Below, piece by piece: positions 12,510 through 64,000 of a stretch of 64,000 nucleotides of DNA. Position numbers and translations under genes: made by a program. This stretch comes from PVC group bacterium. GTDB lineage: Bacteria; Omnitrophota; Gorgyraeia; B26-G9. The notes under the pieces were generated by a model, which saw only the letters and a program-made list of their open reading frames with translations, had not been told where the DNA came from and did no database searches. How positions within the stretch are numbered: position 1 is the stretch's first letter; each line of letters starts with the position of its first letter. The stretch is from contig JAAEQR010000072.1 in assembly GCA_024231215.1 (NCBI GenBank), positions 385,210-449,209 of the forward strand. Reading direction: 5' to 3'.

Positions 12510-12516
12510 AGCAGTT

Positions 12517-47734: not shown

Positions 47735-48513
47735 ATCTAAAAACTGTTATTCTCGCGGGTGGATTTGGAACCAGATTGAGTGAGGAAACGAATGTTAAGC
47801 CTAAGCCGATGATAGAAATAGGGGGGAGACCGATTCTTTGGCATATAATGAAGATATATTCTGCGCATGGATTTAATGAATTTATTGTTTGTCTAGGGTA
47901 TAAAGGATATGTGATAAAAGAATATTTTGCCAACTATTTTTTACATCAGTCGGATGTTACGATTGATGTAGCAAAAAATAGTGTTGAGATTCATAAGACA
48001 ACTTCTGAGCCTTGGAAAATTACGCTTGTTGATACCGGACCGGATACTTTAACCGGAGGGAGGATAAAAAAAATCCAGCCGTATATAGATAATAAGACTT
48101 TCATGTTAACCTATGGCGATGGCGTGGGAGATATCAATATAAAAGAACTAGTGAAAGTGCATAAGAGTCATAAGAAATATGCGACATTGACCGCTGTACA
48201 ACCAATTGGCAGGTTCGGGGCCTTGGAAATAGGTAAAGATGATACTGTTACCAATTTCCATGAAAAGCCTCGAGGCGATGGAATGTATATAAACGGAGGG
48301 TTTTTTGTCTTGGAACCGCAGGTTTTTGATTATATAAAAGATGATCATCATATGTGGGAAGAAGAACCGTTAGAATTGTTAGCACAAAATAAGCAATTGG
48401 CTGCGTATCAACATAACGGATTTTGGAAATGCGTAGATACTTTGCGTGATAAAAGAGATTTAGAATTAATGTGGGATGCTGGAAAAGCTCCTTGGAAAAT
48501 ATGGCATGAGTAG
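47731..48513 (+). CDS. rfbF: Glucose-1-phosphate cytidylyltransferase RfbF/DdhA
   Basis: KTVILAGGFGTRLSEETNVKPKPMIEIGGRPILWHIMKIYSAHGFNEFIVCLGYKGYVIKEYF is the canonical RfbF N-terminus. Confidence 0.9.
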   Translation: MNLKTVILAGGFGTRLSEETNVKPKPMIEIGGRPILWHIMKIYSAHGFNEFIVCLGYKGYVIKEYFANYFLHQSDVTIDVAKNSVEIHKTTSEPWKITLVDTGPDTLTGGRIKKIQPYIDNKTFMLTYGDGVGDINIKELVKVHKSHKKYATLTAVQPIGRFGALEIGKDDTVTNFHEKPRGDGMYINGGFFVLEPQVFDYIKDDHHMWEEEPLELLAQNKQLAAYQHNGFWKCVDTLRDKRDLELMWDAGKAPWKIWHE

Positions 48514-49411
48514 AAAATCTAAAATTTTACTTACCGGTGCGACTGGTTTTCTAGGGTCTCATTTATTGTCTGGATTGATTGATAATGACTACGAAGTGAT
48601 TATTTTAAAGAGATCGTTTGATCCTGTATGGAAAATAAAGGATTTGCAGACACGGATTAAAAGCTATGATCTGGACAAGTCAGATCTTGAAGATGTTTTT
48701 AAAGAGAATAAAATAGACATTATTATTCATCTGGCGACAGATTACGGTAAGGATAGTAAAAGTAAAGTAAACCGGGTGATTAGTACTAATATAGAATTTC
48801 CAGCTAGGTTAATGGAACTAGCTGTGAATTATGAGATTAAATTTTTTGTAAATACGCATACGGCTTCTCCAAGCACATATTTATTCTATTCTGCGACAAA
48901 AAATGCTTTTCTAGAAATTGCAGGGTTTTATGCTGCTAATCATAACCTTTCGTTTGTGAATATGGTTATAGAGTATATGTACGGAGAGCGGGATGATGAT
49001 ATAAAATTTATTCCGGCTATAATAAATAAAATCTTTAAAGGGGAAGAAATTAAAGCAAGTGGAGGAGAGCAAGAGAGAGATTTTATTTATGTGGGGGATG
49101 TGGTTAATGCGTATTTATTATTACTTAAAAAAACAGATAACATTAAAGATGATTTTACGGAATTTAATATTGGGACAGGGGATGTGATGTCCTTTAGAAC
49201 GTTTATTGAAAAAATCGAAAAAAGCATTGAAAAAAAAGCTATAGTTAGCTGGGGAGCTGTACCTTATCGAAAAAATGAGCTGTTTTACTCAAAAGCTGAT
49301 ATTAGCCATATTAATCAAGTGCTAGGATGGTCTCCTGAAGTTTCTTTAGAACAAGGATTATTGAATACAGTCGGCTGGTATCGAAACCAGCAGGAGGATA
49401 ATAGTCAATGA
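48506..49411 (+). CDS. NAD(P)-dependent CDP-4-keto-3,6-dideoxyhexose 4-reductase-like (paratose/abequose synthase-like) SDR
   Basis: I chose the ATG at 48506 (MSRKSKILLTGATGFLGSHL), which overlaps the rfbF stop. YxxxK (YSATK) and the QERDFIYVGDV motif are present. Located between rfbF and rfbG, as prt/abe are in Salmonella and Yersinia. Confidence 0.5.
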   Translation: MSRKSKILLTGATGFLGSHLLSGLIDNDYEVIILKRSFDPVWKIKDLQTRIKSYDLDKSDLEDVFKENKIDIIIHLATDYGKDSKSKVNRVISTNIEFPARLMELAVNYEIKFFVNTHTASPSTYLFYSATKNAFLEIAGFYAANHNLSFVNMVIEYMYGERDDDIKFIPAIINKIFKGEEIKASGGEQERDFIYVGDVVNAYLLLLKKTDNIKDDFTEFNIGTGDVMSFRTFIEKIEKSIEKKAIVSWGAVPYRKNELFYSKADISHINQVLGWSPEVSLEQGLLNTVGWYRNQQEDNSQ

Positions 49412-50505
49412 TTGATATAATTTCTAAATATAAAAATAAAAGAGTGCTGGTTACCGGACATACCGGATTTAAGGGTAGCTGGATGTCCTTATGGCTAAGC
49501 CAGCTTGGAGCTAAGGTTATTGGATATTCCTTGGAGCCACCGACAAGCCCGAGTTTGTTTGAGGCTATTGGTTTGAAGAAACAGATTACGCATATTATAG
49601 CAGATATAAATGATCAGAAGCGTTTAGATGCTGTTTTTAAAAAATATCGTCCTCAAGTAGTATTTCATTTAGCGGCGCAGCCCTTAGTAAGGTTGTCTTA
49701 TAAATCACCGGTGTCTACTTATCAGACAAATGTTATGGGAACGGTGAATGTCTTAGAAGCTGTACGAAAAACTAAAAGTGTTCGGGCGTGTCTTGTGGTT
49801 ACCAGTGATAAGTGTTATGAAAATAAAGAATGGATTTATGGATATCGGGAATCTGATCCAATGGGAGGATATGATCCTTATAGTTCAAGTAAGGGATGTG
49901 CGGAATTAGTAGTTTCTGCGTATAGGAACTCGTTTTTTGCTCCCAAAGAATATGGCAAAGCTCACAGTGTTTCTCTGGCCTCGGCCCGTTCCGGTAATAT
50001 TATCGGTGGGGGGGACTGGGGAGAAGATAGGCTTGTGCCGGATTGTGTTAGAGCTTTATCAAAAAATAAAACAATTATGATTCGTAATCCTTATGCGACA
50101 AGACCTTGGCAATATGTACTTGAACCTTTATCAGGATATCTTCTGCTGGGGGGCCGGATGCTTGAAGATGCGGTTGCTTTTAGCGGTCCCTGGAATTTTG
50201 GCCCTAGCAGTAATGAGGCTTTGCCGGTAAAAGATATTGTTAAACTTGTGTTGTCTTGCTGGGGAGATGGTAAATATAAGATAGAACGTGGTAGAAAAGC
50301 GCATGAGGCGCACTTATTACAGCTTGATGCGAGTAAGGCTCACAAGTTATTGGGATGGAAATCAGTTTATTCAATGAACGAAAAAATGACTCGAACAGTA
50401 AACTGGTATAAAAAATTTTATGACAATATGGGTAAAAGCGCTTTATTGAGGCAAACCTCAGAAGATATAGATCAATATGTTAAAAGGATAAGTGTGCTTG
50501 ATTAA
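49408..50505 (+). CDS. rfbG: CDP-glucose 4,6-dehydratase RfbG/DdhB
   Basis: VLVTGHTGFKGSWMSLWL, SDKCYEN and YSSSK catalytic motifs typical of CDP-glucose 4,6-dehydratase. Confidence 0.85.
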   Translation: MIDIISKYKNKRVLVTGHTGFKGSWMSLWLSQLGAKVIGYSLEPPTSPSLFEAIGLKKQITHIIADINDQKRLDAVFKKYRPQVVFHLAAQPLVRLSYKSPVSTYQTNVMGTVNVLEAVRKTKSVRACLVVTSDKCYENKEWIYGYRESDPMGGYDPYSSSKGCAELVVSAYRNSFFAPKEYGKAHSVSLASARSGNIIGGGDWGEDRLVPDCVRALSKNKTIMIRNPYATRPWQYVLEPLSGYLLLGGRMLEDAVAFSGPWNFGPSSNEALPVKDIVKLVLSCWGDGKYKIERGRKAHEAHLLQLDASKAHKLLGWKSVYSMNEKMTRTVNWYKKFYDNMGKSALLRQTSEDIDQYVKRISVLD

Positions 50506-50506
50506 T

Positions 50507-51820
50507 ATGAAGAATGATTCAAAACTAAGAAGAAAAATCTTAGGCGATGTAAAAAAGTTTTATTTGGAACAGAAGGGGAAAGATAAGTTTGTGCCGGGAA
50601 AGTCAAGAGTTCCTTATGCCGGACGTGTGTTTGACGAAAAAGAGTTGGTTGATCTGGTTGACTCGTCTTTGGATTTCTGGCTGACTGCCGGAAGATATGC
50701 TCAGAAACTAGAAAAACAGCTGGCTGATTTTTTAGGGGTAAAACATGCCTTACTTGTAAATTCCGGGTCATCTGCCAATCTTTTAGCTGTAAGTGCCTTG
50801 ACGTCGCCTTTATTAAAGAAAAAACGCTTAAAACCAGGCGATGAGGTGATTACTACTGCTTGTGGATTCCCAACTACGCTTAATCCGATTTTACAGAACC
50901 AGTTAAAACCGGTAATTCTTGATATTGAACTGGGTACATACAATATTGATACAACAAAGCTTAAACAGGCGATTACAAAGAAAACAAAAGCTATTTTTGT
51001 GGCGCATACACTTGGCAACCCGTTTAATTTAGATGCGGTATTAAAGATAGCTAAAAAACATGATTTATTTGTTATTGAAGATAATTGTGATGCATTAGGT
51101 TCAAAATATAAAGGACAGTTTACTGGAACTTATGGTCATATTGCGACATTGAGTTTTTATCCGGCGCATCACATGACGATGGGAGAAGGAGGCGCGGTTT
51201 TAACTAGTGATCCGGTTTTAAGAAGAGCTTTGCTTTCTTTGCGTGACTGGGGGCGTGACTGCTGGTGTGACCCGGGAAAAGATGATACCTGCTGTAACCG
51301 TTTCACCCAAAAGTTTGGGGAATTACCGTTTGGATATGACCATAAATATGTATATTCACATATAGGTTATAATTTAAAAGTTACAGATATGCAAGCGGCA
51401 ATAGGCGTGGCTCAATTAAAAAAATTGAATAGTTTTATTAAAAAGCGTAAAGATAATTTTGCTTTTTTGCATAAAAATCTTAAAAAGTTTAATAAAAATT
51501 TATTATTGCCGGAAGCGACAAAACATTCCAATCCAAGTTGGTTTGGTTTTCCGATAATTGTAATGCCGTCGGCTAAATTCAATCGTGATGATATTGTTAA
51601 GTTTCTAGAGAATAATAAAATAGCAACACGCATGCTTTTTGGCGGGAATCTTATTAAACAGCCGGCATATTCCGGAATTAAGATGAAGGTTGTTGGTGAA
51701 TTGAAAAATACAAATTTAGTAATGAATAATCTATTCTGGATTGGAGTATATCCTGGAATAGGTAGTAAACAGCGTGCTTACATGGTTGATAAGATGAATG
51801 AATTTATGGATAAATGGTGA
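50507..51820 (+). CDS. rfbH: CDP-6-deoxy-D-xylo-4-hexulose 3-dehydrase (E1, RfbH/DdhC), PMP- and [2Fe-2S]-dependent
   Basis: DegT fold with His replacing the PLP-Lys (SFYPAHHMT). Cys motif C-X57-C-X1-C-X7-C (NCDALG...DCWCDPGKDDTCC) matches the E1 Fe-S ligands. RfbH-type N-terminus FVPGKSRVPYAGRVFDEKE. Confidence 0.85.
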   Translation: MKNDSKLRRKILGDVKKFYLEQKGKDKFVPGKSRVPYAGRVFDEKELVDLVDSSLDFWLTAGRYAQKLEKQLADFLGVKHALLVNSGSSANLLAVSALTSPLLKKKRLKPGDEVITTACGFPTTLNPILQNQLKPVILDIELGTYNIDTTKLKQAITKKTKAIFVAHTLGNPFNLDAVLKIAKKHDLFVIEDNCDALGSKYKGQFTGTYGHIATLSFYPAHHMTMGEGGAVLTSDPVLRRALLSLRDWGRDCWCDPGKDDTCCNRFTQKFGELPFGYDHKYVYSHIGYNLKVTDMQAAIGVAQLKKLNSFIKKRKDNFAFLHKNLKKFNKNLLLPEATKHSNPSWFGFPIIVMPSAKFNRDDIVKFLENNKIATRMLFGGNLIKQPAYSGIKMKVVGELKNTNLVMNNLFWIGVYPGIGSKQRAYMVDKMNEFMDKW

Positions 51821-51852: not shown

Positions 51853-52896
51853 ATGAAAAAAGCTTTAATTACCGGAATAACCGGACAGGATGGCTCTTAT
51901 TTAGCTGAGTTTTTATTGTCTAAGGGATACGAGGTGCATGGTATTATTCGCCGGGCTAGTACTTTTAATACTGGGCGTTTAGAGCATATTTTTATGGATG
52001 AACATGATCCTAATGCTAAGTTATTTTTGCATTACGGAGATTTGGCGGATGCCGAACAGATTTCCGGTTTGATTTATAATATAAAACCGGCTGAGATCTA
52101 TCACCTGGGAGCGCAAAGTCATGTACGAGTGAGTTTTGATATGGCAGAATATTCGGGAAATATTACGGGATTAGGTACTACTCGTATTCTCGAAGCGATT
52201 CGCAGGAGTGGAATCAAGGCAAAATTCTATCAGGCTTCAAGTAGTGAAATGTTTGGAGCGGCAAAACCTCCACAACATGAGAAGACAATATTTCATCCCC
52301 GCAGTCCATATGCTTGCGGCAAAGTTTATTCTTACTGGATGGTCCGGAATTATCGGGATGGTTATAATATTTTTGCTTCTAATGGTATTCTTTTTAATCA
52401 TGAAAGCCCTCGCCGCGGCGAAACATTTGTAACGCGTAAAATTACGCGTGCGGTTGCGGCGATTATGGCTGGAAAACAGAAATATCTTTATATGGGTAAT
52501 CTTGATGCGAGAAGAGACTGGGGATTTGCGCCGGAATATGCAGAACTTATGTGGAAAATTCTGCAGCAGAAGAAAGCAGATGATTTTGTGTTAGGGGTAG
52601 GAGAATCTCATTCAGTAAAGGATTTTGTAGAAACAGCTTTTTCTTATGTGGGAATGAATTGGAAAAAGTATGTAAAAACAGATGCTAGATATTTTCGTCC
52701 GACGGAGGTCGAAAGTTTAATTGCAGATGCTTCTAAAGCAAGGAAAACGCTAAAATGGAAAGCCAAGATAAAATACAAAGATTTAGTTAAGATTATGGTC
52801 GATGCGGATTTAAGAAGAGCCGGATTAGAAGCTGTGGGAGAAGGCGATAAGATATTGAAAAAGAAATTCCCTCAGAAATGGTGGAAAGCAGATTGA
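51853..52896 (+). CDS. gmd: GDP-mannose 4,6-dehydratase
   Basis: [33 protein letters not shown] (YxxxK) and NHESPRRG motifs. Confidence 0.9.
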
Positions 52897-52911
52897 TCCA
52901 AGGAGGGAATA

Positions 52912-54129
52912 ATGCGAAAAATATCAGTAGGCTGGTTGGAAATAGGGGAAAAAGAAAAAAAAGCAGTAAATGATGTGCTGGATTCCGGCAGGATATCGGA
53001 AGGACCGGTAACAGCGGAATTTGAAAAAAAATGGGCTGAATTTATCGGTACACGTTATTGTCTGACAACAAGTTCAGGAACTGCAGCGCTAATCACAGTG
53101 CTTACGGCATTTAAACATCTTTATGATTTAGAAAAACGACCTAAAGTTATAACTTCTCCGCTTACATATATTTCAGATGCTAATGCGATAGTTCTGAGTG
53201 GATTGGAACCGGTGTTTGTTGATATAGATCCGGAAACGTTTTGTATTACTCCGGAAGCTATAGAAAATCATTTGAGTCAGGTAGCTGATCCGGAAAAATA
53301 CAGCATTCTTTTACCGGTTGACTTAATAGGGTATTCTGTAAAGATTGATGAAATAAAAAGAATTGCTCAAAAGTATGATTTACTGGTACTTGAAGATGCG
53401 GCTGAAGCGCATGGGACTATGTATAAGGGGAAATGCAGCGGAGCGGATGCACATGCTGGTATATATTCTTTTTATATCGCACATAATATACAAGCAGGAG
53501 AAATGGGTGCGATCACCACAAATGATGAAAAGATCTTTACTTTGTGTAAACAGTTAAAAGCAAATGGAAGATTTTGTGAATGTACTGTCTGTACTCGGGC
53601 TAAAGGAGTTTGTCCCGGGTTACAGTCGCTGCCTGAGAACGAAGATTTTGATCCTCGTTTTTTACATGAAGTAATTGGATATAATTTTAAAACTATGGAA
53701 TTTCAGCCGGCAATAGCTTTGGCTCAAATGGAAAATATTCCGTATATAATTAAAAGGCGGCAGGAAAACATTGCTGCATTGAACAAAGGGCTAGAGGAGT
53801 TTGCTGATATTTTACAGCTTCCTTTACATGATGAAAATGTAAGCTACTTGGCTTATCCTTTGGTTATTAAGAATACTTCAGCTATATCTAGAAAAAAACT
53901 CCGTAAAGAATTGGAAGAACATGGAGTGGAGACAAGGCCTTTATTTGGCTGTATTCCTACTCAGCAACCGGCCTATGAATATATGCGTAAAGCCTACCAG
54001 GGACGTATTCCTCATGCTGAATATGCGGGAGCTAATGGTTTTTATATTGGCTGTCATCAATATCTTACAGATGAAGATATTGCTTATACTATATCAATTT
54101 TTAAGAAGATATTAGGGGAAACACGATGA
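52912..54129 (+). CDS. DegT-family sugar-nucleotide dehydratase (ColD/E1-like; His in place of the PLP-Lys) with a Cys-rich insertion
   Basis: SFYIAHNIQAGEMG has His where aminotransferases have Lys. The insertion RFCECTVCTRAKGVCPG (CxCx2Cx6C) plus two further nearby Cys is a candidate metal/Fe-S site. Located between gmd and the fcl-like gene. Confidence 0.6.
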   Translation: MRKISVGWLEIGEKEKKAVNDVLDSGRISEGPVTAEFEKKWAEFIGTRYCLTTSSGTAALITVLTAFKHLYDLEKRPKVITSPLTYISDANAIVLSGLEPVFVDIDPETFCITPEAIENHLSQVADPEKYSILLPVDLIGYSVKIDEIKRIAQKYDLLVLEDAAEAHGTMYKGKCSGADAHAGIYSFYIAHNIQAGEMGAITTNDEKIFTLCKQLKANGRFCECTVCTRAKGVCPGLQSLPENEDFDPRFLHEVIGYNFKTMEFQPAIALAQMENIPYIIKRRQENIAALNKGLEEFADILQLPLHDENVSYLAYPLVIKNTSAISRKKLRKELEEHGVETRPLFGCIPTQQPAYEYMRKAYQGRIPHAEYAGANGFYIGCHQYLTDEDIAYTISIFKKILGETR

Positions 54130-55070
54130 TACCTAAAAATTCACGGATTTATATTGCAGGACATACTGGGATGGTGGGAAGAGCTTTGGGTAAAGTGCTT
54201 AAAAGAAAAGGTTATAGTCAGTTAATCGTTAGGACATCTAAGGAGATGGATTTAAGAAATCAAAAAAAGGTTGATGATTTCTTTAAAAAAGAAAAACCGG
54301 ATTATGTATTTCTTTTTGCCGCAAAAGTCGGAGGTATTAAAGCTAATATTGCAGCTCCCTCGGATTTTTTATATGACAATCTGGTAATTGAAACCAATGT
54401 TATTAATTCCAGTTATAAGCAGCAGGTTAAAAAGCTGCTTTATTTAGGCAGCTCCTGTATTTATCCTAGACTTTGTCAGCAGCCGATGAAGGAAGATTAT
54501 TTGCTGAGCGGTAAATTAGAACCAACTAATGAGGGGTATGCATTGGCGAAAATTGTGGGATTAAAACTGTGTGAATATTATAACCAGCAGTTTGAGACTA
54601 ATTTTATTGCGTTAATGCCGCCAAATCTTTACGGGCCTCATGATAATTTTGATTTAGAATCTTCACATGTTGTTGCTGCGTTAATTAGAAAATTTCTTGA
54701 AGCAAAACAAGGCAACTTGCCTTTTGTCGAAATTTGGGGTTCGGGGAATGCTCGACGGGAATTTCTTTATGTTGAAGATTTAGCTGATGCATGTTTTTAT
54801 TTCATTAGTAAATATAATAGCAAAGATTTCCCTTCGTTTATTAATGTAGGCTATGGAAAAGATGTTAATATCAAAAGCCTTGTTGGAATTATTAAAAAGG
54901 AAATTGGGTATAAGGGGCAGATCAGGTGGAATCCTAAGATGCCTGATGGGATGCCGCGGCGTTTAATGGATATTTCGCAGTCGAAAAAAATGGGTTGGCA
55001 GCCGAAAACTTCTTTGCAAGATGGCATTGGGAAAACATTGCGTTGGGTATTAAAAAATTCATGGAAGTAG
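54126..55070 (+). CDS. fcl: GDP-L-fucose synthase-like (Fcl/WcaG) or GDP-L-colitose synthase-like (ColC) 3,5-epimerase/4-reductase
   Basis: RIYIAGHTGMVGRAL, LYLGSSCIYP, YALAK (YxxxK). Fcl and ColC cannot be separated by inspection. Confidence 0.75.
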   Translation: MIPKNSRIYIAGHTGMVGRALGKVLKRKGYSQLIVRTSKEMDLRNQKKVDDFFKKEKPDYVFLFAAKVGGIKANIAAPSDFLYDNLVIETNVINSSYKQQVKKLLYLGSSCIYPRLCQQPMKEDYLLSGKLEPTNEGYALAKIVGLKLCEYYNQQFETNFIALMPPNLYGPHDNFDLESSHVVAALIRKFLEAKQGNLPFVEIWGSGNARREFLYVEDLADACFYFISKYNSKDFPSFINVGYGKDVNIKSLVGIIKKEIGYKGQIRWNPKMPDGMPRRLMDISQSKKMGWQPKTSLQDGIGKTLRWVLKNSWK

Positions 55071-55078
55071 GGCGGAAA

Positions 55079-56269
55079 ATGAAGGTAGTATTAGCTTCGC
55101 ATGTTTGGGTTACCGGGCCATGTCATGAGATTAAGAAATATATTCTTCGAAGAGACAAAGGTACGTTATTATATATAACCCATCCGCTATATTATCATGA
55201 CAGACTTAATGGCAGTGGATATGAGTTGTATAGCGATGGGAAGCTTGTTCGTGAACAGTATAATAAAATTCGCAAAATCCCCGAAATCATTAACTATTTT
55301 AGTGCTTTTTTTCGGAATATATTATATGTTTTCAGGACCAGGGAATCGTATGATGTATATATTGGATTTAATAACTTGAATGCTTTGGCCGGATGGTTTT
55401 TGAAAAAAATTGGTAAAGTAAATAGATGTGTGTATCATGTAGTTGATTATACCCCGCAGCGTTTTGACAATAAGCTCTTAAATTTTATATATCATCGCAT
55501 AGAAAGTTTTTGTGCGGTTCATTGTGATGAAACCTGGAACTTGTCGGGGCGAATGGTTGATGCCCGGGAACATTTTAAAGGACTTCGTCGGGAATTATGT
55601 GGTGTGCAGAAAGTTGTTCCAATGGGGATATGGGATGAGGAGATGGTCAGGTTTGATTTTGAATCAGTACATAAAACGCAGCTTGTTTTTATGGGGCATC
55701 TTCTGAAAAAGAACGGGGTGCAGTTTGTATTAGATGCGGTTCCTTTGATTATTGAAAAAATTCCGAAGTTTACTTTCTTGGTGATTGGCGATGGGGAATA
55801 TTTGGGGAAACTTAAGGCGCAAGTTTCCAGACTAAAAATTGATAAATGCGTGCGATTTGCCGGATATGTAGAAGATCATGCTGAAATCGAACGGATGATT
55901 GCTAAATCAGCGTTGGCAATTGCTTTATATGAATCCGGCAATAAAGAAAAGAACTGGACGTACTATACTGATCCAGGTAAAATAAAAGTCTATTTGGGGA
56001 GTGGGGTTCCGGTATTATTATCAGATGTGCCTCCAAATGCCAGGGAAATAGAGAAAGAACAATGCGGTAAAATTGTAGATTTAGCTCCCAAGGATATTGC
56101 TGCTGCAGTAGTTTTAATGCTGCAAGATCCGGAACTTTTACGTATTTACCGCAAAAACGCTCTTGCGTATAGTAAGCAGTTTGACTGGCAAAAGATGCTG
56201 GATAAAGCGTTTATTTTTGATAATAATCATGCCACTTCGCCCGGAAAAGTGACTTGTGTGTGGAAATAA
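55079..56269 (+). CDS. GT-B fold glycosyltransferase (GT4-like), paralog of 62648-63796
   Basis: I chose the ATG at 55079 after the GGAAG/GGCGGA RBS. The C-terminal half is about 50% identical to the last GT of the window (VFMGHLLKK.GVQ...YYTDPGK.KVYL..GVPVLL.D.P.NAREIE). Confidence 0.6.
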   Translation: MKVVLASHVWVTGPCHEIKKYILRRDKGTLLYITHPLYYHDRLNGSGYELYSDGKLVREQYNKIRKIPEIINYFSAFFRNILYVFRTRESYDVYIGFNNLNALAGWFLKKIGKVNRCVYHVVDYTPQRFDNKLLNFIYHRIESFCAVHCDETWNLSGRMVDAREHFKGLRRELCGVQKVVPMGIWDEEMVRFDFESVHKTQLVFMGHLLKKNGVQFVLDAVPLIIEKIPKFTFLVIGDGEYLGKLKAQVSRLKIDKCVRFAGYVEDHAEIERMIAKSALAIALYESGNKEKNWTYYTDPGKIKVYLGSGVPVLLSDVPPNAREIEKEQCGKIVDLAPKDIAAAVVLMLQDPELLRIYRKNALAYSKQFDWQKMLDKAFIFDNNHATSPGKVTCVWK

Positions 56270-56278: not shown

Positions 56279-57310
56279 ATGCAAAATCCTTTAGTAAGTA
56301 TAATAATTGTAAACTGGAATGGATTAGCCCATCTTAAAAAGTGCTTTGTGTCTTTAAAGGGGATTAATTATAAAAATTATGAAATAATTTTAGTTGATAA
56401 TAATTCTAAAGACGAATCTGTTGCTTATGTACGGGAAAAATTTCCCAAAGTAAAAATTATTGTTAATACAGAAAACCTTGGATTTGCCGAGGCCAATAAT
56501 ATCGGTTATGAGAATTCCAAGGGGGATTTAATTCTTTTTTTAAACAACGATGTAGAAATAGAACCGGATTTCTTAGGGATATTGGTGCAGGAGCTTATTG
56601 GAGATCCTAATTTGGGCGGAGTACAGCCGAAGATTCTCTTAATGAAGGAAAGAGAAAAGCTCGATTCAGTCGGGGGATTTCTGACTAATAGCGGTTTCTT
56701 ATATCATTATGGAATCTATAAGGATGAAAAGCAGGACAAATACAATAAAAAGATAGATATTTATTCGGCAAAAGGCGCTTGTATGCTTTTCAGGAAGAAA
56801 GTAATAGAAAAAACAGGTTTGTTTGATAAAGATTTTTTTGCTTATTTTGAAGAAACTGATTTCTGTCACCGGGTTTGGCTGGCCGGATATAAAATCAGAT
56901 ATGTTCCTGAGTCCCGGATTTACCATTTAATGGGGGGAACATCAGGGGCAATGGATTCTCCCTTGATCCAATTTCATTCATTTAAGAATAGAATTAATTC
57001 TTTTTTGAAAAATCTAGGAATTAAGGAGTTGATGAAAATTCTTTTACACCATTTAATTCTCATTAACTTAGTTTCAATTGTCTGCCTTTTTTGTGGGAAA
57101 ATTAAAATGGCTTTTGCTATACAAAAAGCTATTTATTGGAATTTTTTGAATATTCATAAAACTGTTCGTAAGAGAAAAATAATCCAGAAAAATATTCGGA
57201 TGGTGAGTGGTCATGAAATTGAAAAATTTATTATGCAAAAGCCTCGTCTAATATACTATTTTTATCTTTTTGCAAATAAAGTGCCTCAATACAATGATCC
57301 GGTGTTGTAA
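56279..57310 (+). CDS. GT2-family glycosyltransferase (rhamnosyltransferase-like)
   Basis: VSIIIVNWNGLAHL...IILVDNNSKDES and a DXD-like motif (LNNDVE). Confidence 0.8.
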   Translation: MQNPLVSIIIVNWNGLAHLKKCFVSLKGINYKNYEIILVDNNSKDESVAYVREKFPKVKIIVNTENLGFAEANNIGYENSKGDLILFLNNDVEIEPDFLGILVQELIGDPNLGGVQPKILLMKEREKLDSVGGFLTNSGFLYHYGIYKDEKQDKYNKKIDIYSAKGACMLFRKKVIEKTGLFDKDFFAYFEETDFCHRVWLAGYKIRYVPESRIYHLMGGTSGAMDSPLIQFHSFKNRINSFLKNLGIKELMKILLHHLILINLVSIVCLFCGKIKMAFAIQKAIYWNFLNIHKTVRKRKIIQKNIRMVSGHEIEKFIMQKPRLIYYFYLFANKVPQYNDPVL

Positions 57311-57321: not shown

Positions 57322-58884
57322 ATGGCCAATATTTTATTTGTTGATAAGGGGATACCGAGCATAGGCATTGCTTATATGGCTTCATTTTTAAAAAAATATG
57401 GACATAGAGTGCATTATCTGCGGGCATCTTTAAAATCCATGTTTTCTCCTAACGTTGAGATTGATGTTGATAGTTATATAAAAAATAAATTAGGTAATAA
57501 AGTAGATATTTTCTGTTTTTCGGTCATGGCGATCGATTGGGGGTGGGTAAAGGGAAAAATATCAATTTTAAAAAAGAAATATCCAAAAACTCCTATTTTA
57601 GTTGGAGGTTCATTTGCCACATTATCTCCAGAGGTTATTTTGCGTGATTCTGAGGCTGATTATGTTTGTAACGGAGATGGTGAAAAACCGCTTTTAGCTA
57701 TTGCCCAGAGCCTGGATTCTAAGACACTAGTTAAAGATGTAGAAGCAATAGATAACATTGGATATAAAAAAAACGGGGAATCTGTGATAAAAGACATGTC
57801 CTATCAGGTTGATAATCTGGATGATTATCCTTTTCCTGATTTTAGTATTTATCATGGGCAGTTTTCCAGAGATTTTTTTGTCAATCCCCGGTTAATAACA
57901 AGCCGGGGATGTTCGTTTTCATGTACTTACTGTTCCTGCCCGAATTTAAACAAATTGTACTCGAAAACCGGAAAATTTGTGCGACGACACTCTGTTCCTT
58001 ATATGATCGAATTTTTATCTAAGATGAAGGATGCTTATAAAAGCAAAAATTTCACATTTAACGATGATATTTTTTTTCTTGATAAAAAATGGTTAAAAGA
58101 TTTTGCGCGTGAATATAAAAAGAAAATAAATGTGCCTAATATATGTATAGGTAATCCTAATTTTATTGATGATGAAGTCGCTGAATCATTAAAAGAGATA
58201 CGGTGTAGATTGGTTATTCTGGGGTTACAAAGTGGGTCAGAAGAGGTTAGGAAAAAATTGCGAAGATCTGAAAGTAATTCTAAAGTAGTAGAGATAACAC
58301 GTTGTTTAAAGAAAGCTTCAGTAAGTTTTTCTATAAACCATATTTTTGATTTACCTTTTGATACTGTAAATAATATCCAAGAAAGTGCGGGCTTATATAA
58401 TAAAGTCAGGCCGAATATGCTAGACACATTTTCTTTGGCATATTTTCCTAAGGCGGAAATCATAAAAGACGCTGTAGCTGCGGGGAGATTATCCGAAGAA
58501 GATGTTATCCAGATAGAATCCGGAAAATGCAGCGGACAAATTAATCCGTATAAACACCAGGCAAAGACTAATTATCAATGTTATAATCTTTTTTTTAACA
58601 TGATTCCGGTATTGCCCAAAAAAGTAATAAATTTTTTAATATCACCTAAGAGATTTCAGCGTGTTTGCAGACTATTTTCTTATTTACCGGGAGAGGTGTC
58701 TGCGTTAATAAAATTGTGCCTTGCTTTCAAAAATCACACACAGTTTATACAAACTAGTGCTTTTCATGAAATCATATTCTATATTAACTATAAGTGGCAA
58801 TTTAAATTACGCAATGTATTTACTTCTCTAAGTCAAAAATATAACAAGAATACAAGTTCAGTTGTGGGCAATGTAACCAGTTAG
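57322..58884 (+). CDS. B12-binding-domain radical SAM enzyme 1 of a tandem triplet
   Basis: N-terminal B12-binding-like Rossmann (ILVGGSFATL). CX3CX2C motif (GCSFSCTYC). Long C-terminal domain. Confidence 0.75.
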   Translation: MANILFVDKGIPSIGIAYMASFLKKYGHRVHYLRASLKSMFSPNVEIDVDSYIKNKLGNKVDIFCFSVMAIDWGWVKGKISILKKKYPKTPILVGGSFATLSPEVILRDSEADYVCNGDGEKPLLAIAQSLDSKTLVKDVEAIDNIGYKKNGESVIKDMSYQVDNLDDYPFPDFSIYHGQFSRDFFVNPRLITSRGCSFSCTYCSCPNLNKLYSKTGKFVRRHSVPYMIEFLSKMKDAYKSKNFTFNDDIFFLDKKWLKDFAREYKKKINVPNICIGNPNFIDDEVAESLKEIRCRLVILGLQSGSEEVRKKLRRSESNSKVVEITRCLKKASVSFSINHIFDLPFDTVNNIQESAGLYNKVRPNMLDTFSLAYFPKAEIIKDAVAAGRLSEEDVIQIESGKCSGQINPYKHQAKTNYQCYNLFFNMIPVLPKKVINFLISPKRFQRVCRLFSYLPGEVSALIKLCLAFKNHTQFIQTSAFHEIIFYINYKWQFKLRNVFTSLSQKYNKNTSSVVGNVTS

Positions 58885-58897
58885 GATATAATGGATT

Positions 58898-60346
58898 ATG
58901 AATGCTTCGATAAATGATACTAGTGGAATCCGTTGTTTTTTACTTGTGCCTCCGGAAGAAAAAACAAAAAAAGATAATGAAGTAGGACAAGAAGGGATTT
59001 TTCCTCCGTTAGGATTAGCATATTTAGCTGCTGTTTTAAGAAACAATAATATTCAGGTGAAGATTTTTGATGCACTTGCTAGCCGTTTAAGTATGGAAGA
59101 TGTTTGTGAGATTATTCAACGTGAAAAACCTGATTTTTGCGGTATTACTGTTTTGTCGCAACAAATAAAAGCAGTTCAAAAACTAGTAGCAAAACTTAAA
59201 ATAATATCTCCCTCAACCAAAATTGTGCTGGGGGGACCTCATATTCACTTTGAACATGAAAATGTTATAATTGATTCTAATGTTGATTTTTGTGTAAGAG
59301 GAGAAGGTGAGGAGACTGTTCTTGAATTAATCCAAGCGGTTAATAAAAAAACGGATTTACGGGTAGTCAAAGGCATAGTTTTTAAAGACGAGAACAATAA
59401 AGTAGTAATTAATGAGCAACGGCAATATATAAAAAATTTGGATGAGATTCCTTTTCCGGCGCGGGATTTGCTGCCGATGCAGACTTATAAAGCTCCCATA
59501 TCTTTGGGAAGCCCGGGAAGGCCGTTTACTTCGGTTTTGGCAACGAGAGGATGTCCATTTAAATGCCATTATTGTTCTCTTACCGCGATGTGGGGGAATC
59601 AACGTAGAAGATCAGTCGAAAACGTTCTTGATGAACTAGAGGAATTACAGGAAAAATATGGCATAAAATATGTTAGTTTTGTTGATGATCTTCTTGTCGT
59701 AAATAAAAAATGGGCTATTGCGCTTTGTCAAGGTATGAGAGAAAGAGGGATTAATATTGAATGGGATTGTTGCGGCCGGATTGGAGTGATGGACGAGGAG
59801 CTTTTATTAGAAATGAAAAAGGCAAATTGTCGATGTGTGATTTATGGTATTGAATTTGGAAGTCAGAAAATACTCGATTGGATTCAACGGTGTTACACAA
59901 TACAGCAGGTTATAGATACTGTTGAAATGACAGCGAAAGCAAAAATACCAATAAAAGGGTTATTTATGATGGGCTATCCGACAGAAACAAAGGAAACTTT
60001 GCAGGAAACTATATCGTTAGCTAAAAAACTCAAATTAGATTATGTAACACTTTCTATTGTGGCTCCGTATTCCGGAACTAAGTTATATGAATATTGTAAG
60101 GAAAACAACGTACTTTGTGATATGGACCAAAAGGGTAAAGATGTATTACAACTTCGCTATAAAGCAATTGCTTTAGAACATTTAACCGTAGATGATCTCA
60201 TTAATTATTATAAAAAGTTTTATTTTGCGTACATTATGCGTCCATCTTATATTTGGTTAATGCTTACTCGTCATCCACAAAAAGTATTAGCGTTTGGTCC
60301 GAGATTTTTAAAATGGTTATTTTTAGGCAAATGGGAGAATAGTTAA
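58898..60346 (+). CDS. B12-binding-domain radical SAM enzyme 2 of a tandem triplet
   Basis: B12-binding-like domain (IVLGGPH). CX3CX2C motif (GCPFKCHYC). Paralogous to the flanking rSAM genes. Confidence 0.75.
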   Translation: MNASINDTSGIRCFLLVPPEEKTKKDNEVGQEGIFPPLGLAYLAAVLRNNNIQVKIFDALASRLSMEDVCEIIQREKPDFCGITVLSQQIKAVQKLVAKLKIISPSTKIVLGGPHIHFEHENVIIDSNVDFCVRGEGEETVLELIQAVNKKTDLRVVKGIVFKDENNKVVINEQRQYIKNLDEIPFPARDLLPMQTYKAPISLGSPGRPFTSVLATRGCPFKCHYCSLTAMWGNQRRRSVENVLDELEELQEKYGIKYVSFVDDLLVVNKKWAIALCQGMRERGINIEWDCCGRIGVMDEELLLEMKKANCRCVIYGIEFGSQKILDWIQRCYTIQQVIDTVEMTAKAKIPIKGLFMMGYPTETKETLQETISLAKKLKLDYVTLSIVAPYSGTKLYEYCKENNVLCDMDQKGKDVLQLRYKAIALEHLTVDDLINYYKKFYFAYIMRPSYIWLMLTRHPQKVLAFGPRFLKWLFLGKWENS

Positions 60347-60352
60347 TAGTAC

Positions 60353-61813
60353 ATGAAAGATAAAATGAAAATTATCCTTTTTCGCCCCAATTATGACGTG
60401 CATGTTGTTTTTCCTCCCATGGCTTTGGGCTATTTGGCTGCGTCGTTGATCAAGGAAGGACATCAAGTTGATATTTATGATGGTACACTTAAGAATTCTT
60501 CAACGCAGGATTTTTTAAAAGAAATAGAAGAAACAGCTCCTGATTTGATCGGGATAACGGTTATGAGCCGAGGCCATGCAAAGGTTAGAGATGTTGTTAA
60601 GCTGATAAAAAATACGTGTGATATTCCTATAGTAATTGGCGGTCCTCAGGTAACAGCATTACCCGAGATTGTGTTGAAGGATATTGGTGCAGATTTTGCT
60701 GTTTTTGGTGAAGGAGAGATAACTATTTGTGAGCTTGCACAAGCAATGGTTTCAGGCAAGCAGAGCTATGATTCTATAAATGGATTAGCTTATGTGGCAA
60801 AAGACGGGACCATTATTGTGAATAACCCGCGGGAACTTATAAAAGACTTAGATCAAATTTCATTTCCGGCATGGCAGCTTATGAATCCTGCGGATTATCG
60901 GATTGTACCGATTTTAGCCCCAGCCAAAGGATATCCTATCGCGCCGATTGTAACTTCCCGGGGTTGTCCTTTTCTGTGTACCTTTTGTGCTTCAAATGTA
61001 ACATGGAAAAATAAATTTCGAGTTAGAAGTCCGGAAAATGTAGTAGATGAAATTAAACTTCTTGTTGAAAAATTTGGCGTGCGTGAAATATATATAACAG
61101 ATGATAATCTTACTTTAAATAGAAAACATGCCGAAGCTATTTGTGATGAAATAATGAAGGCTGGACTTAAGATTTCCTGGCAATGCCCGAATGGAGTGAG
61201 GATTGATCATCTTGATCAGAAACTTTTGGCAAAGATGAAAAAAGCAGGGTGTTATAGTGTAGGCTTAGGTATCGAGTCTGCTAATAAGGAAATTCTTTGT
61301 AATATTAAGAAACAGCTTGATCTTTCTGTTGTTAAGAAAGTTCTGATTGATTTAAAAAAAGCTGGAATTATGTCGTATGGTTTTTTTGTTTTTGGCTTGC
61401 CGGGGGAAACGCACGAGACCATTCGTGAAACTATTGATTTTGCTAAAAATAATCCTTTTGACCGTGCATGGTTTAATATTTTAACTCCCTATCCCGGGTC
61501 TGAAATATTTAATGATTGGATTGGCGAACGTTCCTTTGCTGATATTGATTGGGAGACTCATGACGGCAGTACGGCGGTTATTGATACGGTAGAGTTGTCT
61601 AGTGCGGAATTAGAGGAGTATCAAACAAAAGCTGTGAGGGAATTTTATTTGCGGCCGCGGATTGTACTTTCTCTTATGCGGCATATTAGAATTAAGCAAA
61701 TAATAACTATATCTATGACCAGGTTTTTTAAGAAAAGGTATAATATTTTCAAAATAATCCACCAAGCAGCACATTTTTTTGTAAGAAAACGAGTTAAGCA
61801 AAAGACAAACTAA
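60353..61813 (+). CDS. B12-binding-domain radical SAM enzyme 3 of a tandem triplet
   Basis: B12-binding-like domain (IVIGGPQ). CX3CX2C motif (GCPFLCTFC). The C-terminal domain is shared with the neighbouring rSAM genes. Confidence 0.75.
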   Translation: MKDKMKIILFRPNYDVHVVFPPMALGYLAASLIKEGHQVDIYDGTLKNSSTQDFLKEIEETAPDLIGITVMSRGHAKVRDVVKLIKNTCDIPIVIGGPQVTALPEIVLKDIGADFAVFGEGEITICELAQAMVSGKQSYDSINGLAYVAKDGTIIVNNPRELIKDLDQISFPAWQLMNPADYRIVPILAPAKGYPIAPIVTSRGCPFLCTFCASNVTWKNKFRVRSPENVVDEIKLLVEKFGVREIYITDDNLTLNRKHAEAICDEIMKAGLKISWQCPNGVRIDHLDQKLLAKMKKAGCYSVGLGIESANKEILCNIKKQLDLSVVKKVLIDLKKAGIMSYGFFVFGLPGETHETIRETIDFAKNNPFDRAWFNILTPYPGSEIFNDWIGERSFADIDWETHDGSTAVIDTVELSSAELEEYQTKAVREFYLRPRIVLSLMRHIRIKQIITISMTRFFKKRYNIFKIIHQAAHFFVRKRVKQKTN

Positions 61814-61824: not shown

Positions 61825-62643
61825 ATGAGTAATCCCCTAATTTCTGTGCTTATGCCTGCGTATAATGCGAAGCAGTATATTAAAGAGGCGATTGAAAGTA
61901 TTATAAATCAGACGTTTAAGGATTTTGAATTTATCATTATCGATGATAATAGCAAAGATAATACCTGGGACATAATACAGGAGTATGCTCATAAAGATTC
62001 AAGAATAGTCGCTTTAAAGAATGATGAAAACTTGAAATTAAGCAAAACTTTAAATAAGGGGCTAGCTCAAGCTAAAGGCAAGTATATAGCAAGAATGGAT
62101 GCGGATGATATATCCGTGCCGGATCGATTTCAAAAACAAATTAATTACATGGAAAGATATCCGGAGGTAGGTATTCTCGGTGGAGCCATGGAATTAAGGG
62201 ATATAAATGATAAATTTATTGGGATTAGAAAATATAGCGTAATGGATGAAAAGATAAAGAAATATATTTACAGATATTGTCCTTTTTGCCATCCGGCTAT
62301 AATGCTTAAGAAAGATGTTTTAAATCAGGTTGGTGGTTATAATGAACAATGGAACCCGGCGGAAGATTACGATTTATATTTTCGGATCGGAAAAATCACA
62401 AAGTTTGCTAATTTAAAGGATATATTAATAAAGTACAGAGTTGTGCCGCAATCAATGACTACCGGATTAACGAATGAGATGTATTTAAAAACAATAAAAA
62501 TTAGGCTCAAATATGCGAAAGATAAAGATTATAAAATGAGTTTATTTGATAGAATGTACACAATGTTACAATTTGCCGCTATTTATATTCTGCCGACAAA
62601 AGTTAAGATCTGGATATTCCATATACTACGGGATTCAAAGTAA
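61825..62643 (+). CDS. GT2-family glycosyltransferase
   Basis: ISVLMPAYNAKQYI...FIIIDDNSKDNT and a DXD (MDADD) motif. Confidence 0.8.
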   Translation: MSNPLISVLMPAYNAKQYIKEAIESIINQTFKDFEFIIIDDNSKDNTWDIIQEYAHKDSRIVALKNDENLKLSKTLNKGLAQAKGKYIARMDADDISVPDRFQKQINYMERYPEVGILGGAMELRDINDKFIGIRKYSVMDEKIKKYIYRYCPFCHPAIMLKKDVLNQVGGYNEQWNPAEDYDLYFRIGKITKFANLKDILIKYRVVPQSMTTGLTNEMYLKTIKIRLKYAKDKDYKMSLFDRMYTMLQFAAIYILPTKVKIWIFHILRDSK

Positions 62644-62647
62644 TGCG

Positions 62648-63796
62648 ATGAAAAAAAATATTAATATTGTTATTGTTTCTCATAAATTTCTTACCCAGCC
62701 GGACGATGATCTTGTTTTGTTTTTGAATGATGAAAAGTGTAAAAACGTATTACATATTCGGCACAGTTTTACTGATGCTGCGGATAGGAGAAGCTGGTTT
62801 ACTTGGTATAAAGATGGGGAAACTTATAAAGAATATGCAACCAAGGATTATAAATGGCTTCCTGAACCATTGATATATTTGAAGGAAACGTATTTTACTT
62901 TTAAATGGTTGTGGTTTAGCGGTATAGTTTGGGATGTTTATATTGGGATGGATGGGCTTTGTGTTGGGTGGGGTAATATATCAAGATTTTCTAAAAAAGT
63001 AAAAAAGACAATATTTTGGGCTATAGATTTCGTGCCGAAAAATCGGTTTAAACAGAAAATTAAAAATAAAATATACCATTGGATAAACGTTAAGGGATAT
63101 AAAAAATCTGATGAAATGTGGGATCTTTGTTCTCGGATGAAAGAAGCTCGCAGTAAATTTTTAGGAGTTAAAGAGACTGATTATCGAGTGCATAGGGTCG
63201 TTCCTTATGGGGTGTGGGGTGACAATATTAGAAAATATTCATACCGGGATTGTGATCAGAAAACCCTGGTTTTTATGGGGCATTTGCTTAAAAAACAGGG
63301 TGTGCAGCTGGTTATAGACGCGATACCTGAATTGATTGAAAAGATTCCTGGGTTTCATTTTAAGATAATCGGCGGCGGTGCCTATAGAGATGAATTACTA
63401 GCACATGCTCAAAAACTTAAAGTTGCCCAATATTGTGAGTTTAAAGGTAAAATTAAAGACCATTCTCAAGTAGAAGAAGAAATCGCAAAATCTTCTCTGG
63501 CAGTTGCTCCATATATAAAAAAATATGATACTTGGACCTATTATACTGATCCTGGAAAAGTAAAGGTTTACCTGGCTTGCGGGGTGCCTGTATTGCTTAC
63601 AGATATTCCCTGGAATGCAAGGGAGATTGAAGATAATAAAGCCGGGGCAGTGATTAAGGAAGATAAGGTTGTTTTATCTGAGCAGATTGTAAAACTTATG
63701 ACGGATGAGAATTTAAATCAGAAATATAGAGAGAATGCTATTAAATATGCTGAGCAGTTTAATTATAAGAATATTTTTAAGGGGTTAAATTTGTGA
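62648..63796 (+). CDS. GT-B fold glycosyltransferase (GT4-like), paralog of 55079-56269
   Basis: I chose the ATG at 62648 (MKKNINIVIV), just after the GT2 stop. The ORF-track start at 62546 lies inside the upstream GT2. The C-terminal half is conserved with the 55079 protein. Confidence 0.6.
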   Translation: MKKNINIVIVSHKFLTQPDDDLVLFLNDEKCKNVLHIRHSFTDAADRRSWFTWYKDGETYKEYATKDYKWLPEPLIYLKETYFTFKWLWFSGIVWDVYIGMDGLCVGWGNISRFSKKVKKTIFWAIDFVPKNRFKQKIKNKIYHWINVKGYKKSDEMWDLCSRMKEARSKFLGVKETDYRVHRVVPYGVWGDNIRKYSYRDCDQKTLVFMGHLLKKQGVQLVIDAIPELIEKIPGFHFKIIGGGAYRDELLAHAQKLKVAQYCEFKGKIKDHSQVEEEIAKSSLAVAPYIKKYDTWTYYTDPGKVKVYLACGVPVLLTDIPWNAREIEDNKAGAVIKEDKVVLSEQIVKLMTDENLNQKYRENAIKYAEQFNYKNIFKGLNL

Positions 63797-64000
63797 GAAT
63801 TCTATATCAAATACCAAGTTTAGAAAGTGTATATGCGGCGCGGTTTATTTACGAAGGATATAAAGACGCGTTTTTAGATGGCGGGCATGAATTTAAGCCG
63901 TATACAGCACAAGCTAATTTAGGAGAAATGCTGGATGAGTTTAATCCGCATATATTTATTTCTTCTCTTTGTCAATATTCGCTTAAATTTCTTGATCTTG
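63793..64000 (+). CDS. Partial ORF (N-terminus only), possibly another B12-binding-domain protein; runs off the window end
   Basis: GTG overlapping the upstream stop (GTGA). The N-terminus RILYQIPSLESVYAARFIYEGYKDAFLDGGHEF resembles the B12-domain N-termini of the rSAM paralogs (ILF..P.......A..L...GH.V). Confidence 0.25.
   Translation, partial: MRILYQIPSLESVYAARFIYEGYKDAFLDGGHEFKPYTAQANLGEMLDEFNPHIFISSLCQYSLKFLDL

Follow-up and report, generated by a model that had tools for sequence, protein, structure and literature searches.

Four B12-type radical SAM genes embedded in a surface-glycan locus of an uncultured PVC group bacterium: candidate tailoring enzymes of a Wzx-dependent pathway

The window analysed here, a stretch of 64,000 nucleotides from an uncultured PVC group bacterium (assembly GCA_024231215.1, contig JAAEQR010000072.1, positions 385,210 to 449,209 of the forward strand), contains a glycan locus that runs from a Wzx-type flippase gene at 37607 to the window end, entirely on the + strand, and that harbours four genes for radical S-adenosylmethionine (SAM) proteins with B12-type N-terminal domains, three of them adjacent (rA, rB and rC) and one further upstream (rD). 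The four proteins are proposed to be integral radical tailoring enzymes of a Wzx-dependent surface-glycan pathway, most likely C-methylases, a reading to which a probability of roughly 0.55 is attached; a glycan-tailoring role in general is likely, and C-methylation as the chemistry of at least most of the four is a possibility held at somewhat under even odds. The glycan association is solid. What was observed directly comprises the domain architecture, the cysteine motifs, the fold, the embedding in an operon and a glycan context that recurs in several phyla and in both bacteria and archaea. Known class B radical SAM enzymes serve in the biosynthesis of antibiotics, cofactors and lipids and in protein modification, and rA–rD are new members of this known superfamily, annotated only generically. 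A literature search found no paper on B12-type radical SAM genes in surface-glycan loci, and the words ‘polysaccharide’ and ‘glycan’ are absent from a 2026 review of the class B enzymes (PMC12931638).

Organisation of the glycan locus

The four radical SAM genes are part of one tightly packed + strand operon with glycosyltransferase and nucleotide-sugar genes. Intergenic gaps of 6–13 nt separate rA, rB, rC and the flanking family 2 glycosyltransferase (GT2) genes, with 13 and 6 nt between the successive members of the tandem, and the first codon of rD overlaps the stop codon of the GT2 gene before it. Promoter-like and terminator-like predictions across 52–64 kb occur at the level of shuffled sequence; the scan is uninformative in itself, its counts being consistent with a single operon.

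At least 10 glycosyltransferases are encoded in the locus, as detected by Pfam, alongside CDP, GDP and UDP sugar branches, as an earlier note made from the letters alone had described. The CDP-3,6-dideoxyhexose branch comprises RfbF, RfbG and RfbH, each above its NCBIfam cutoff, and a short-chain dehydrogenase/reductase (SDR); the GDP branch comprises Gmd, likewise above its NCBIfam cutoff, an E1/ColD-like DegT protein and an Fcl/ColC-like SDR; and the UDP branch comprises Ugd and an SDR (Pfam; TIGR03026). Assignment of the DegT protein at 52912 as a perosamine-type aminotransferase was considered and rejected: because histidine replaces the lysine that would carry pyridoxal phosphate (PLP) and an E1-like Cys-rich insert is present, the protein is read as a second 3-dehydrase of the locus, probably acting on the GDP branch. 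Class I methyltransferase genes, common in related loci, were not found in the glycan locus by Pfam and profile searches, and no phosphonate genes were identified there. By eye, no cobalamin gene is evident within the window.

Domain architecture, fold and kinship of rA–rD

Judged from sequence, all four proteins carry the class B radical SAM architecture of a B12-type N-terminal domain, a radical SAM core and a three-cysteine motif for a [4Fe-4S] cluster. The B12-binding domain (PF02310) is matched at 51.5, 82.3 and 77.6 bits by rA, rB and rC, respectively, and at 31.8 bits, marginally below the cutoff of 32.1, by rD, with Radical_SAM (PF04055) scores of 54.5, 79.7, 94.0 and 65.7 bits for rA to rD. 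A CX3CX2C motif occupies residues 197–204 of rA, 219–226 of rB and 205–212 of rC, and the cluster motif of rD is a non-canonical CX4CX2C (RDCWWGKCTFCSW), identical in orthologs from Beckwithbacteria of the Candidate Phyla Radiation (CPR; locus L004, 6760–8214, and L008, 6763–8217) and from an archaeon (L005, 4902–6557). A Cys-rich tail, CSCNCGSSSC, is found in the window copy of rD alone when set against the rD-family members of L004, L005 and L008. The earlier note's description of three full-length B12-domain open reading frames (ORFs; 520, 482 and 486 aa) arranged head to tail thus agrees with the coordinates, strand, Pfam domains and Cys motifs, its assignment of the proteins to a class-B type is borne out, and the fourth such gene that it placed at 42989, between ugd and the CDP genes, is there, with the B12-domain score just short of the cutoff.

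An AlphaFold2 model of rC built from 26 homologues has a predicted local distance difference test (pLDDT) score of 91.8, and its closest folds are TsrM (E 7e-28, template modelling (TM) score 0.71), CysS, AprD4 (TM 0.70), MgmA, OxsB and TokK, with the cobalamin-bound class B enzymes TsrM, CysS, OxsB and TokK aligning over both domains; given these matches, rC is predicted to adopt the class B two-domain fold. The C-termini of rA (residues 420–520), rB (440–482) and rC (430–486) are basic and amphipathic-looking, and the rC model places helices at 417–485. Through these basic C-termini the proteins might attach to the membrane, in keeping with substrates that are lipid-linked.

Pairwise identity among the four proteins is 22–35% (rB–rC 35%, rB–rD 31%, rA–rB 27%, rA–rC 24%), to be compared with up to 69% between rC and its orthologs elsewhere, and rA–rD are therefore regarded as four separate, old orthologous families and not as recent duplicates. 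The term ‘paralogous’, applied earlier to the tandem genes, accordingly holds in an ancient sense and fails for recent duplication, the tandem members being 24–35% identical and belonging to distinct families.

A further alternative is that at least one copy is an inactive relic of an old duplication, with rA, on account of its weak Pfam scores and few homologues, and rD, on account of its motif spacing and sub-threshold B12-domain score, as the principal candidates. This is very improbable: each of the four ORFs is intact, full-length and equipped with a three-Cys motif; a bacterial, a CPR and an archaeal ortholog at 51–58% identity share the same rD motif, indicating selection and not decay; and rA has orthologs of the same length and 52–56% identity in other glycan loci.

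Conserved glycan context in unrelated lineages

Among the matches listed for rC, 119 of 120 homologues are metagenomic sequences of 47–69% identity, with Methanoperedens, Deltaproteobacteria and CPR bacteria among their sources; the last of the 120 is an NCBI entry with the same sequence as rC. Four rC-ortholog neighbourhoods were read via precomputed Pfam annotation, and all four are glycan loci, three of them with two or three B12-type radical SAM genes. In L001, L002, L004, L005, L006 and L007 the rC ortholog lies among GT2, family 4 (GT4) and C-type (GT-C) glycosyltransferase, Wzx, epimerase, DegT, AsnB and methyltransferase genes, with further B12-type radical SAM genes beside it in L002, L004, L005 and L006, and with an ortholog (35–41% identity) of GT4_a, the first glycosyltransferase gene upstream of GT2_a and the tandem, adjoining it in L001, L005, L006 and L007. 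In L006, a metagenome-assembled genome (MAG) of Thermodesulfobacteriota, a GT4_a-type gene (40%) precedes a tandem of three radical SAM genes, of which the last two correspond to rB (53%) and rC (58%) in the order of the window. Orthologs of rD are 58% identical in the Methanoperedens locus (L005) and 51% in Beckwithbacteria (L004 and L008), and in a Beckwithbacteria genome they occur alongside rC orthologs. About 15 orthologs of rA were found at 34% identity or more, and both neighbourhoods examined (L086 and L087) belong to glycan loci with glycosyltransferases, methyltransferases, AsnB, a carbamoyltransferase and more radical SAM genes.

The most extensive correspondence is with the archaeal locus of Candidatus Methanoperedens (L005; JAPMTX010000137.1, 1947–12567), in which nine genes are colinear with window positions 37607–63796 at 31–58% protein identity; in window order these are Wzx (31%), GT2_c (50%), GT2_d (43%), rD (58%), GT2_e (34%), the E1-like DegT (56%), an SDR (32%), rC (50%) and GT4 (35%). 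In L005 a single SDR gene separates the DegT ortholog from the rC ortholog downstream of it. The nine-gene colinearity suggests an inter-domain transfer of the whole module. Taken together, the neighbourhood comparisons place orthologs of all four radical SAM proteins in glycan loci of unrelated lineages, among them Thermodesulfobacteriota, CPR and Methanoperedens.

In a wider survey of one genome for each species, at least 518 relatives were detected; the best 80 of these, characterised by source, all come from single-cell or metagenome-assembled genomes of uncultured organisms, and their lineages include CPR, DPANN, Omnitrophota, Elusimicrobiota, Planctomycetota and Desulfobacterota. Annotation of 84 loci with purpose-built profiles, with counts restricted to the 50 loci no shorter than 15 kb, gives a rough picture without a genome-wide control: at least one glycosyltransferase was present in 38 of the 50 loci and at least three glycan genes in 30, at least two radical SAM genes were present in 28 and at least three in 19, and the density of glycan genes up to 10 kb away from the focal gene was 1.5–2.4 per 10 kb. 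When the same profiles were run on the 33 kb housekeeping part of the window, no glycan category was matched and the sole match was that of the radical SAM profile on 17776–19170. This + strand gene, which is not part of the glycan locus and has a PilT-like ATPase gene on one side and histidine kinase genes on the other, encodes a further radical SAM protein with a B12-type N-terminal domain that resembles the TIGR03960 family (253 bits vs a cutoff of 462). The earlier statement that B12-type radical SAM genes are not standard components of glycan clusters consequently stands for textbook loci and not for uncultured anaerobes, in which the pattern is common.

A role outside glycan synthesis, in which the radical SAM proteins act on something else (for instance a lipid of the membrane, a peptide, or a tetrapyrrole or cofactor) and their genes are passengers of variable surface-glycan islands, draws on the remainder of the survey. 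No glycosyltransferase was detectable in 12 of the 50 long loci, and relatives at ∼32–35% identity occur in glycosyltransferase-free clusters with 5–8 B12-type radical SAM genes within ∼20 kb (L039, L044, L047, L052 and L057, of which L039, L052 and L057 are from Elusimicrobia), so that the wider clade is not exclusively glycan-linked. Groundwater Elusimicrobia have been described with many B12-domain radical SAM genes clustered beside nitrogenase paralogs, for which synthesis of a tetrapyrrole-type cofactor was proposed (bioRxiv 10.1101/765248), and the five clusters may be of this type; like the window, the published clusters bring together many B12-domain radical SAM genes in uncultured anaerobes, but they are without glycosyltransferases, whereas the genes of the window, like their orthologs, lie inside glycan loci. 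A partial score of rC on the profile of ladderane-type lipid enzymes (TIGR04072; 174 bits vs a cutoff of 360) points in the same direction. Nevertheless, a non-glycan role is unlikely for the four orthologous groups themselves: true orthologs (at least 45% identity) of rA–rD all lie in glycan loci, in at least five unrelated lineages; gene order is kept, with the radical SAM genes interleaved with glycosyltransferase genes and not at an island edge; the genes are translationally packed with those glycosyltransferase genes; and among the genes identified in the 37.6–64 kb locus there is none for lipid or tetrapyrrole synthesis or for a precursor peptide. A subgroup with a known non-glycan role and with conserved non-glycan neighbourhoods elsewhere had been named earlier as grounds for abandoning the glycan interpretation; no non-glycan subgroup was matched, and the orthologs of rA–rD occupy conserved glycan neighbourhoods, which favours the glycan role.

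Relation to characterised class B enzymes

Classification against NCBIfam assigned none of the four proteins to a named subgroup. The closest profiles, all below their cutoffs, were HpnJ (TIGR03471, cutoff 577.6 bits; rB 210.5, rC 203.0, rD 139.9, rA 88.1), BchE (TIGR02026, 481 bits; rC 206.8, rB 197.9, rD 119.3, rA 54.4), the Sden_1168 P-methyltransferase (NF038361, 575 bits; best rC 199.9), the ladderane-type lipid enzyme (TIGR04072, 360 bits; rC 174.1, rB 143.0, rA 79.1, rD 75.8), the PhpK P-methyltransferase (TIGR04479, 600 bits; best 152), the AprD4-family diol dehydratase (NF033070, 500 bits; rC 114.1, rB 102.2, rD 31.1, with only the radical SAM domain aligning) and TsrM (TIGR04428, 500 bits; 106). 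As no family cutoff was reached, function cannot be transferred from HpnJ, BchE, PhpK or AprD4. The nearest solved structures by sequence are AprD4 (radical SAM domain only), TsrM (both domains), MgmA (9ccb), CysS and TokK. Alignments of rC with TsrM, BchE, TIGR04428 and Sden_1168 start within its first 20 residues, so that the N-terminal domain is covered, whereas those with AprD4 start only at residue 159–160.

In architecture and setting, the nearest parallels are GenK and GenD1 (gentamicin) and MoeK5 (moenomycin), which share the B12-Rossmann and radical SAM two-domain arrangement of rA–rD and modify a carbon atom of a sugar during the assembly of a glycoside, the kind of setting proposed for the present locus. 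MoeK5 works within a lipid-linked oligosaccharide pathway. All three are Csp3 methyltransferases (PMC12931638). They belong to actinomycete antibiotic secondary metabolism, whereas rA–rD reside in a Wzx-type cell-surface glycan locus of an uncultured PVC group bacterium, and the likeness of rA–rD to these enzymes and to Fom3 is a general class B resemblance, with four different families present in one locus. TsrM (6wte), a cobalamin-dependent tryptophan C2-methyltransferase, is the best fold match of rC and aligns in sequence with rC residues 7–410 across both domains, although identity is only 19–21% and TsrM differs in its substrate and in its non-radical chemistry. HpnJ and BchE give the highest curated profile scores for rB, rC and rD, with nearly full-length alignment, but those scores are below half of the cutoffs and the three proteins sit in a glycan-synthesis context; no hopanoid or bacteriochlorophyll genes were found near the radical SAM genes. 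HpnJ targets the part of a hopanoid that derives from glucosamine, and neither HpnJ nor BchE is a methylase.

The proposed reaction and its main rival

In the mechanism envisaged, each enzyme would use its Cys motif to bind a [4Fe-4S] cluster and would cleave SAM to a 5'-deoxyadenosyl radical, which would take hydrogen from an unactivated sugar carbon. We infer the substrate class: either a nucleotide-linked sugar or, more likely, a lipid-linked oligosaccharide intermediate, the latter being preferred because the radical SAM genes are interleaved with glycosyltransferase genes. In the likeliest version, methylcobalamin bound to the N-terminal Rossmann domain would donate a methyl group to the substrate radical, in the manner of GenK, GenD1 and MoeK5, and C-methyl or branched sugars would be the expected products. 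As the four proteins come from separate families of orthologs, they would be expected to differ in the residue or position that they modify, and because no class I methyltransferase was found in the locus, any methylation there would fall to the radical SAM proteins. The use of cobalamin, and methylation in preference to rearrangement or dehydration, are likewise inferred; methyl transfer is taken as the likeliest follow-up to radical formation because most characterised class B enzymes are methylases (PMC12931638), because rB and rC score strongly on the B12-binding domain, because the alignment of rC with TsrM includes the N-terminal domain, and because of that same lack of a class I enzyme.

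Several observations weigh against the C-methylase reading. The B12-domain score of rD falls just below the cutoff, no named-family cutoff is reached by any of the four, and the top-scoring profiles, HpnJ and BchE, are not those of methylases; the glycosyltransferase-free clusters of distant relatives, and the conclusion drawn from them for the wider clade, tell against its glycan component. Orthologs are present in CPR and DPANN genomes, lineages that are not known to synthesise cobalamin. Cobalamin in class B enzymes is bound base-off with no protein ligand (PMC12931638), so that its binding has no diagnostic sequence motif, and a B12-type Rossmann domain is no guarantee of binding: AprD4 and ArsL relatives fall inside the B12-type radical SAM similarity network and yet bind no cobalamin (PMC12931638). 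AprD4 itself, to which rB and rC are closer in sequence than to any other solved structure, is a cobalamin-free sugar 1,2-diol dehydratase (PMC12931638).

Some of these points also favour the main rival, in which rA–rD tailor the glycan without methylating it, through cobalamin-independent or cobalamin-assisted radical rearrangement, dehydration or deoxygenation of sugars (compare the 1,2-diol dehydration by AprD4) or through ring contraction (OxsB, HpnJ), the N-terminal domain serving as a structural element or electron sink. AprD4 (6fd2), the apramycin 1,2-diol dehydratase, acts on an aminoglycoside sugar and is the top PDB sequence match of rC (E 5e-27) and rB (E 3e-20); rD is the most HpnJ-like of the four; and the locus is one of deoxy-sugar synthesis, with two E1-type 3-dehydrases alongside RfbG and Gmd, and no E3-type reductase seen among its genes. 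The likeness to AprD4 is, however, limited to the radical SAM domain and amounts to 102–114 bits against a family cutoff of 500, and, in contrast to the cobalamin-free AprD4, rB and rC score far above cutoff on the B12-binding domain (82 and 78 bits), while rC alignments with TsrM, BchE and Sden_1168 extend into the N-terminal domain and the majority of characterised class B enzymes are methyltransferases (PMC12931638). Non-methylating radical chemistry on sugars is therefore treated as a serious but improbable alternative, and glycan tailoring by C-methylation is retained as the preferred reading.

Flanking glycosyltransferases and the 3' end of the window

The tandem is framed by glycosyltransferase genes in the order GT4_a, GT2_a, rA, rB, rC, GT2_b, GT4_b, which had been taken as a symmetric bracket of paralogous pairs. 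For the outer pair this is correct, GT4_a and GT4_b being paralogous (37% identity over 379 aa, E 4e-82); the inner pair shares 28% identity over 116 aa only, a generic similarity of the N-terminal GT2 domain.

A probable fifth B12-type radical SAM gene had also been placed at 63793, and this assignment is withdrawn. The 69 codons of this ORF within the window score 0.6 bits on the radical SAM profile, compared with 17–67 bits for the first 69 aa of rA–rD on the same profile, and give no Pfam match even at E ≤ 10. A homologue search with the 69-aa fragment returned two short fragments only, and a metagenome scan recovered 28 homologues with 55–83% identity over the matched stretch. Ten translated full-length homologues (55–74% identity over the 69 aa) are 342–360 aa long and have no Cys motif, and the three tested in Pfam belong to Glyco_trans_1_2 (PF13524, ∼89 bits); the ORF is consequently read as a CgeB-like glycosyltransferase and not as a radical SAM protein. 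Contig L088 is colinear with the 3' end of the window, carrying orthologs of rB (71%), GT2_b (62%), GT4_b (65%) and the CgeB-like gene (74%), followed directly by a B12-type radical SAM gene (3757–5319, ∼520 aa, 31% identical to rC). By analogy with this arrangement, a fifth radical SAM gene may lie just past window position 64000.

Further features of the window

The window is AT-rich (34–40% GC) with a positive GC skew throughout, and its genes lie nearly all on the + strand. Its first 33 kb, read by eye from the translations, hold housekeeping genes, including the dcw cluster, signalling genes, IleS, LspA and Lgt. The dcw cluster (19–15585, + strand) comprises RsmH, FtsL, FtsI, MurE, MurF, MraY, MurD, FtsW, MurG, MurC, MurB, Ddl, FtsQ and FtsA; its last gene, FtsA, is followed by an HD-GYP response regulator, and by eye there is no ftsZ at the usual position. 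A 368-aa protein at 32393–33499 (+) has no NCBIfam match and resembles, by eye, a GH43- or GH130-type beta-propeller; it is followed by a GT2 gene at 33520–34362 (−), the sole minus-strand gene in that part, and by a PilZ-domain protein at 34440–34871. The NadE, HisH and HisF genes at 35.0–37.4 kb were considered as a sugar-amidation module of the WbuX/Y/Z type and rejected, as they pass housekeeping cutoffs (NadE 285 vs 255, HisH 244 vs 105 and HisF 397 vs 295 bits); a WbuZ score of 286 bits, short of its cutoff of 300, also counts against such a module. Features of the glycan locus are collected in Table 1.

Table 1. Features of the glycan locus, in window coordinates. Paired values are score vs family cutoff; percentages are protein identities.
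Feature	Position	Strand	Basis and remarks
Wzx-type flippase, locus start	37607..38881	+	Pfam Polysacc_synt; 31% to flippase opening L005
GT2_c, conserved cassette member	38862..39707	+	Pfam Glycos_transf_2, 108 bits; 50% to L005 GT2 at same position
SDR epimerase/dehydratase (UDP branch)	39712..40674	+	Pfam
Ugd, UDP-glucose 6-dehydrogenase	40671..41960	+	Pfam; NDP-sugar dehydrogenase TIGR03026, 493 vs 190 bits
GT2_d, stop overlaps rD start	41991..42992	+	Pfam; 43% to L005 GT2 directly upstream of rD ortholog
rD, HpnJ-like radical SAM protein with weak B12-type N-domain, 507 aa	42989..44512	+	Pfam; best NCBIfam HpnJ, 140 vs 578 bits; orthologs 51–58%
SDR epimerase/dehydratase, GT4 and GT2 (GT2_e)	44493..47734	+	Pfam
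RfbF (47731), SDR (48476), RfbG (49408), RfbH/E1 (50492)	47731..51820	+	NCBIfam: RfbF 430 vs 300, RfbG 499 vs 278, RfbH 712 vs 423 bits
Gmd (51853), E1/ColD-like DegT (52912), Fcl/ColC-like SDR (54126)	51853..55070	+	Gmd 489 vs 415 bits; Fcl-like 425 vs 500 bits
E1/ColD-like DegT	52912..54129	+	SFYIAHN with His for PLP Lys; RfbH/E1-like Cys-rich insert; 56% to L005 DegT
GT4_a, GT4-like glycosyltransferase, probable start 55079	54995..56269	+	Pfam Glycos_transf_1 and Glyco_trans_1_4; 37% to GT4_b
GT2_a	56279..57310	+	Pfam Glycos_transf_2, 97 bits
rA, B12-domain radical SAM protein, 520 aa	57322..58884	+	Pfam; CX3CX2C; most divergent of the four, small family
rB, B12-domain radical SAM protein, 482 aa	58898..60346	+	Pfam; CX3CX2C
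rC, B12-domain radical SAM protein, 486 aa	60353..61813	+	Pfam; CX3CX2C; AlphaFold2 model; large orthologous family
GT2_b	61825..62643	+	Pfam, 133.5 bits; 62% ortholog in L088
GT4_b, GT4-like glycosyltransferase, probable start 62648	62546..63796	+	Pfam; 65% ortholog in L088
CgeB-like glycosyltransferase (PF13524 family), 5' end, runs off window	63793..64000	+	Metagenome homologues; no radical SAM match

Implications for surface-glycan chemistry

A more speculative reading, offered tentatively and held to be less probable than not, is that the locus represents a mobile glycan-tailoring cassette with several B12-type radical SAM enzymes, common to PVC-group bacteria, Thermodesulfobacteriota, CPR and Methanoperedens, and introducing surface-sugar modifications unknown from characterised O-antigen, capsule and N-glycan structures. 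C-alkyl branches, carbocycles and radical deoxygenations are examples of what such a cassette could confer, and, if confirmed, it would add a new, anaerobe-specific layer to surface-glycan chemistry. If rA–rD do tailor glycans, the surfaces of many uncultured anaerobes, including CPR and DPANN, would bear C–H-functionalised sugars missing from current glycan databases, and the bacterial and archaeal cassettes, being nearly colinear, would be a record of the transfer of an entire glycan pathway between domains. The four compact orthologous families, with candidate CDP-, GDP- and UDP-sugar substrates encoded nearby, would also be tractable for enzymology. Should the chemistry prove ordinary, a useful annotation rule would still follow, namely that B12-type radical SAM genes are common in the glycan loci of anaerobes.

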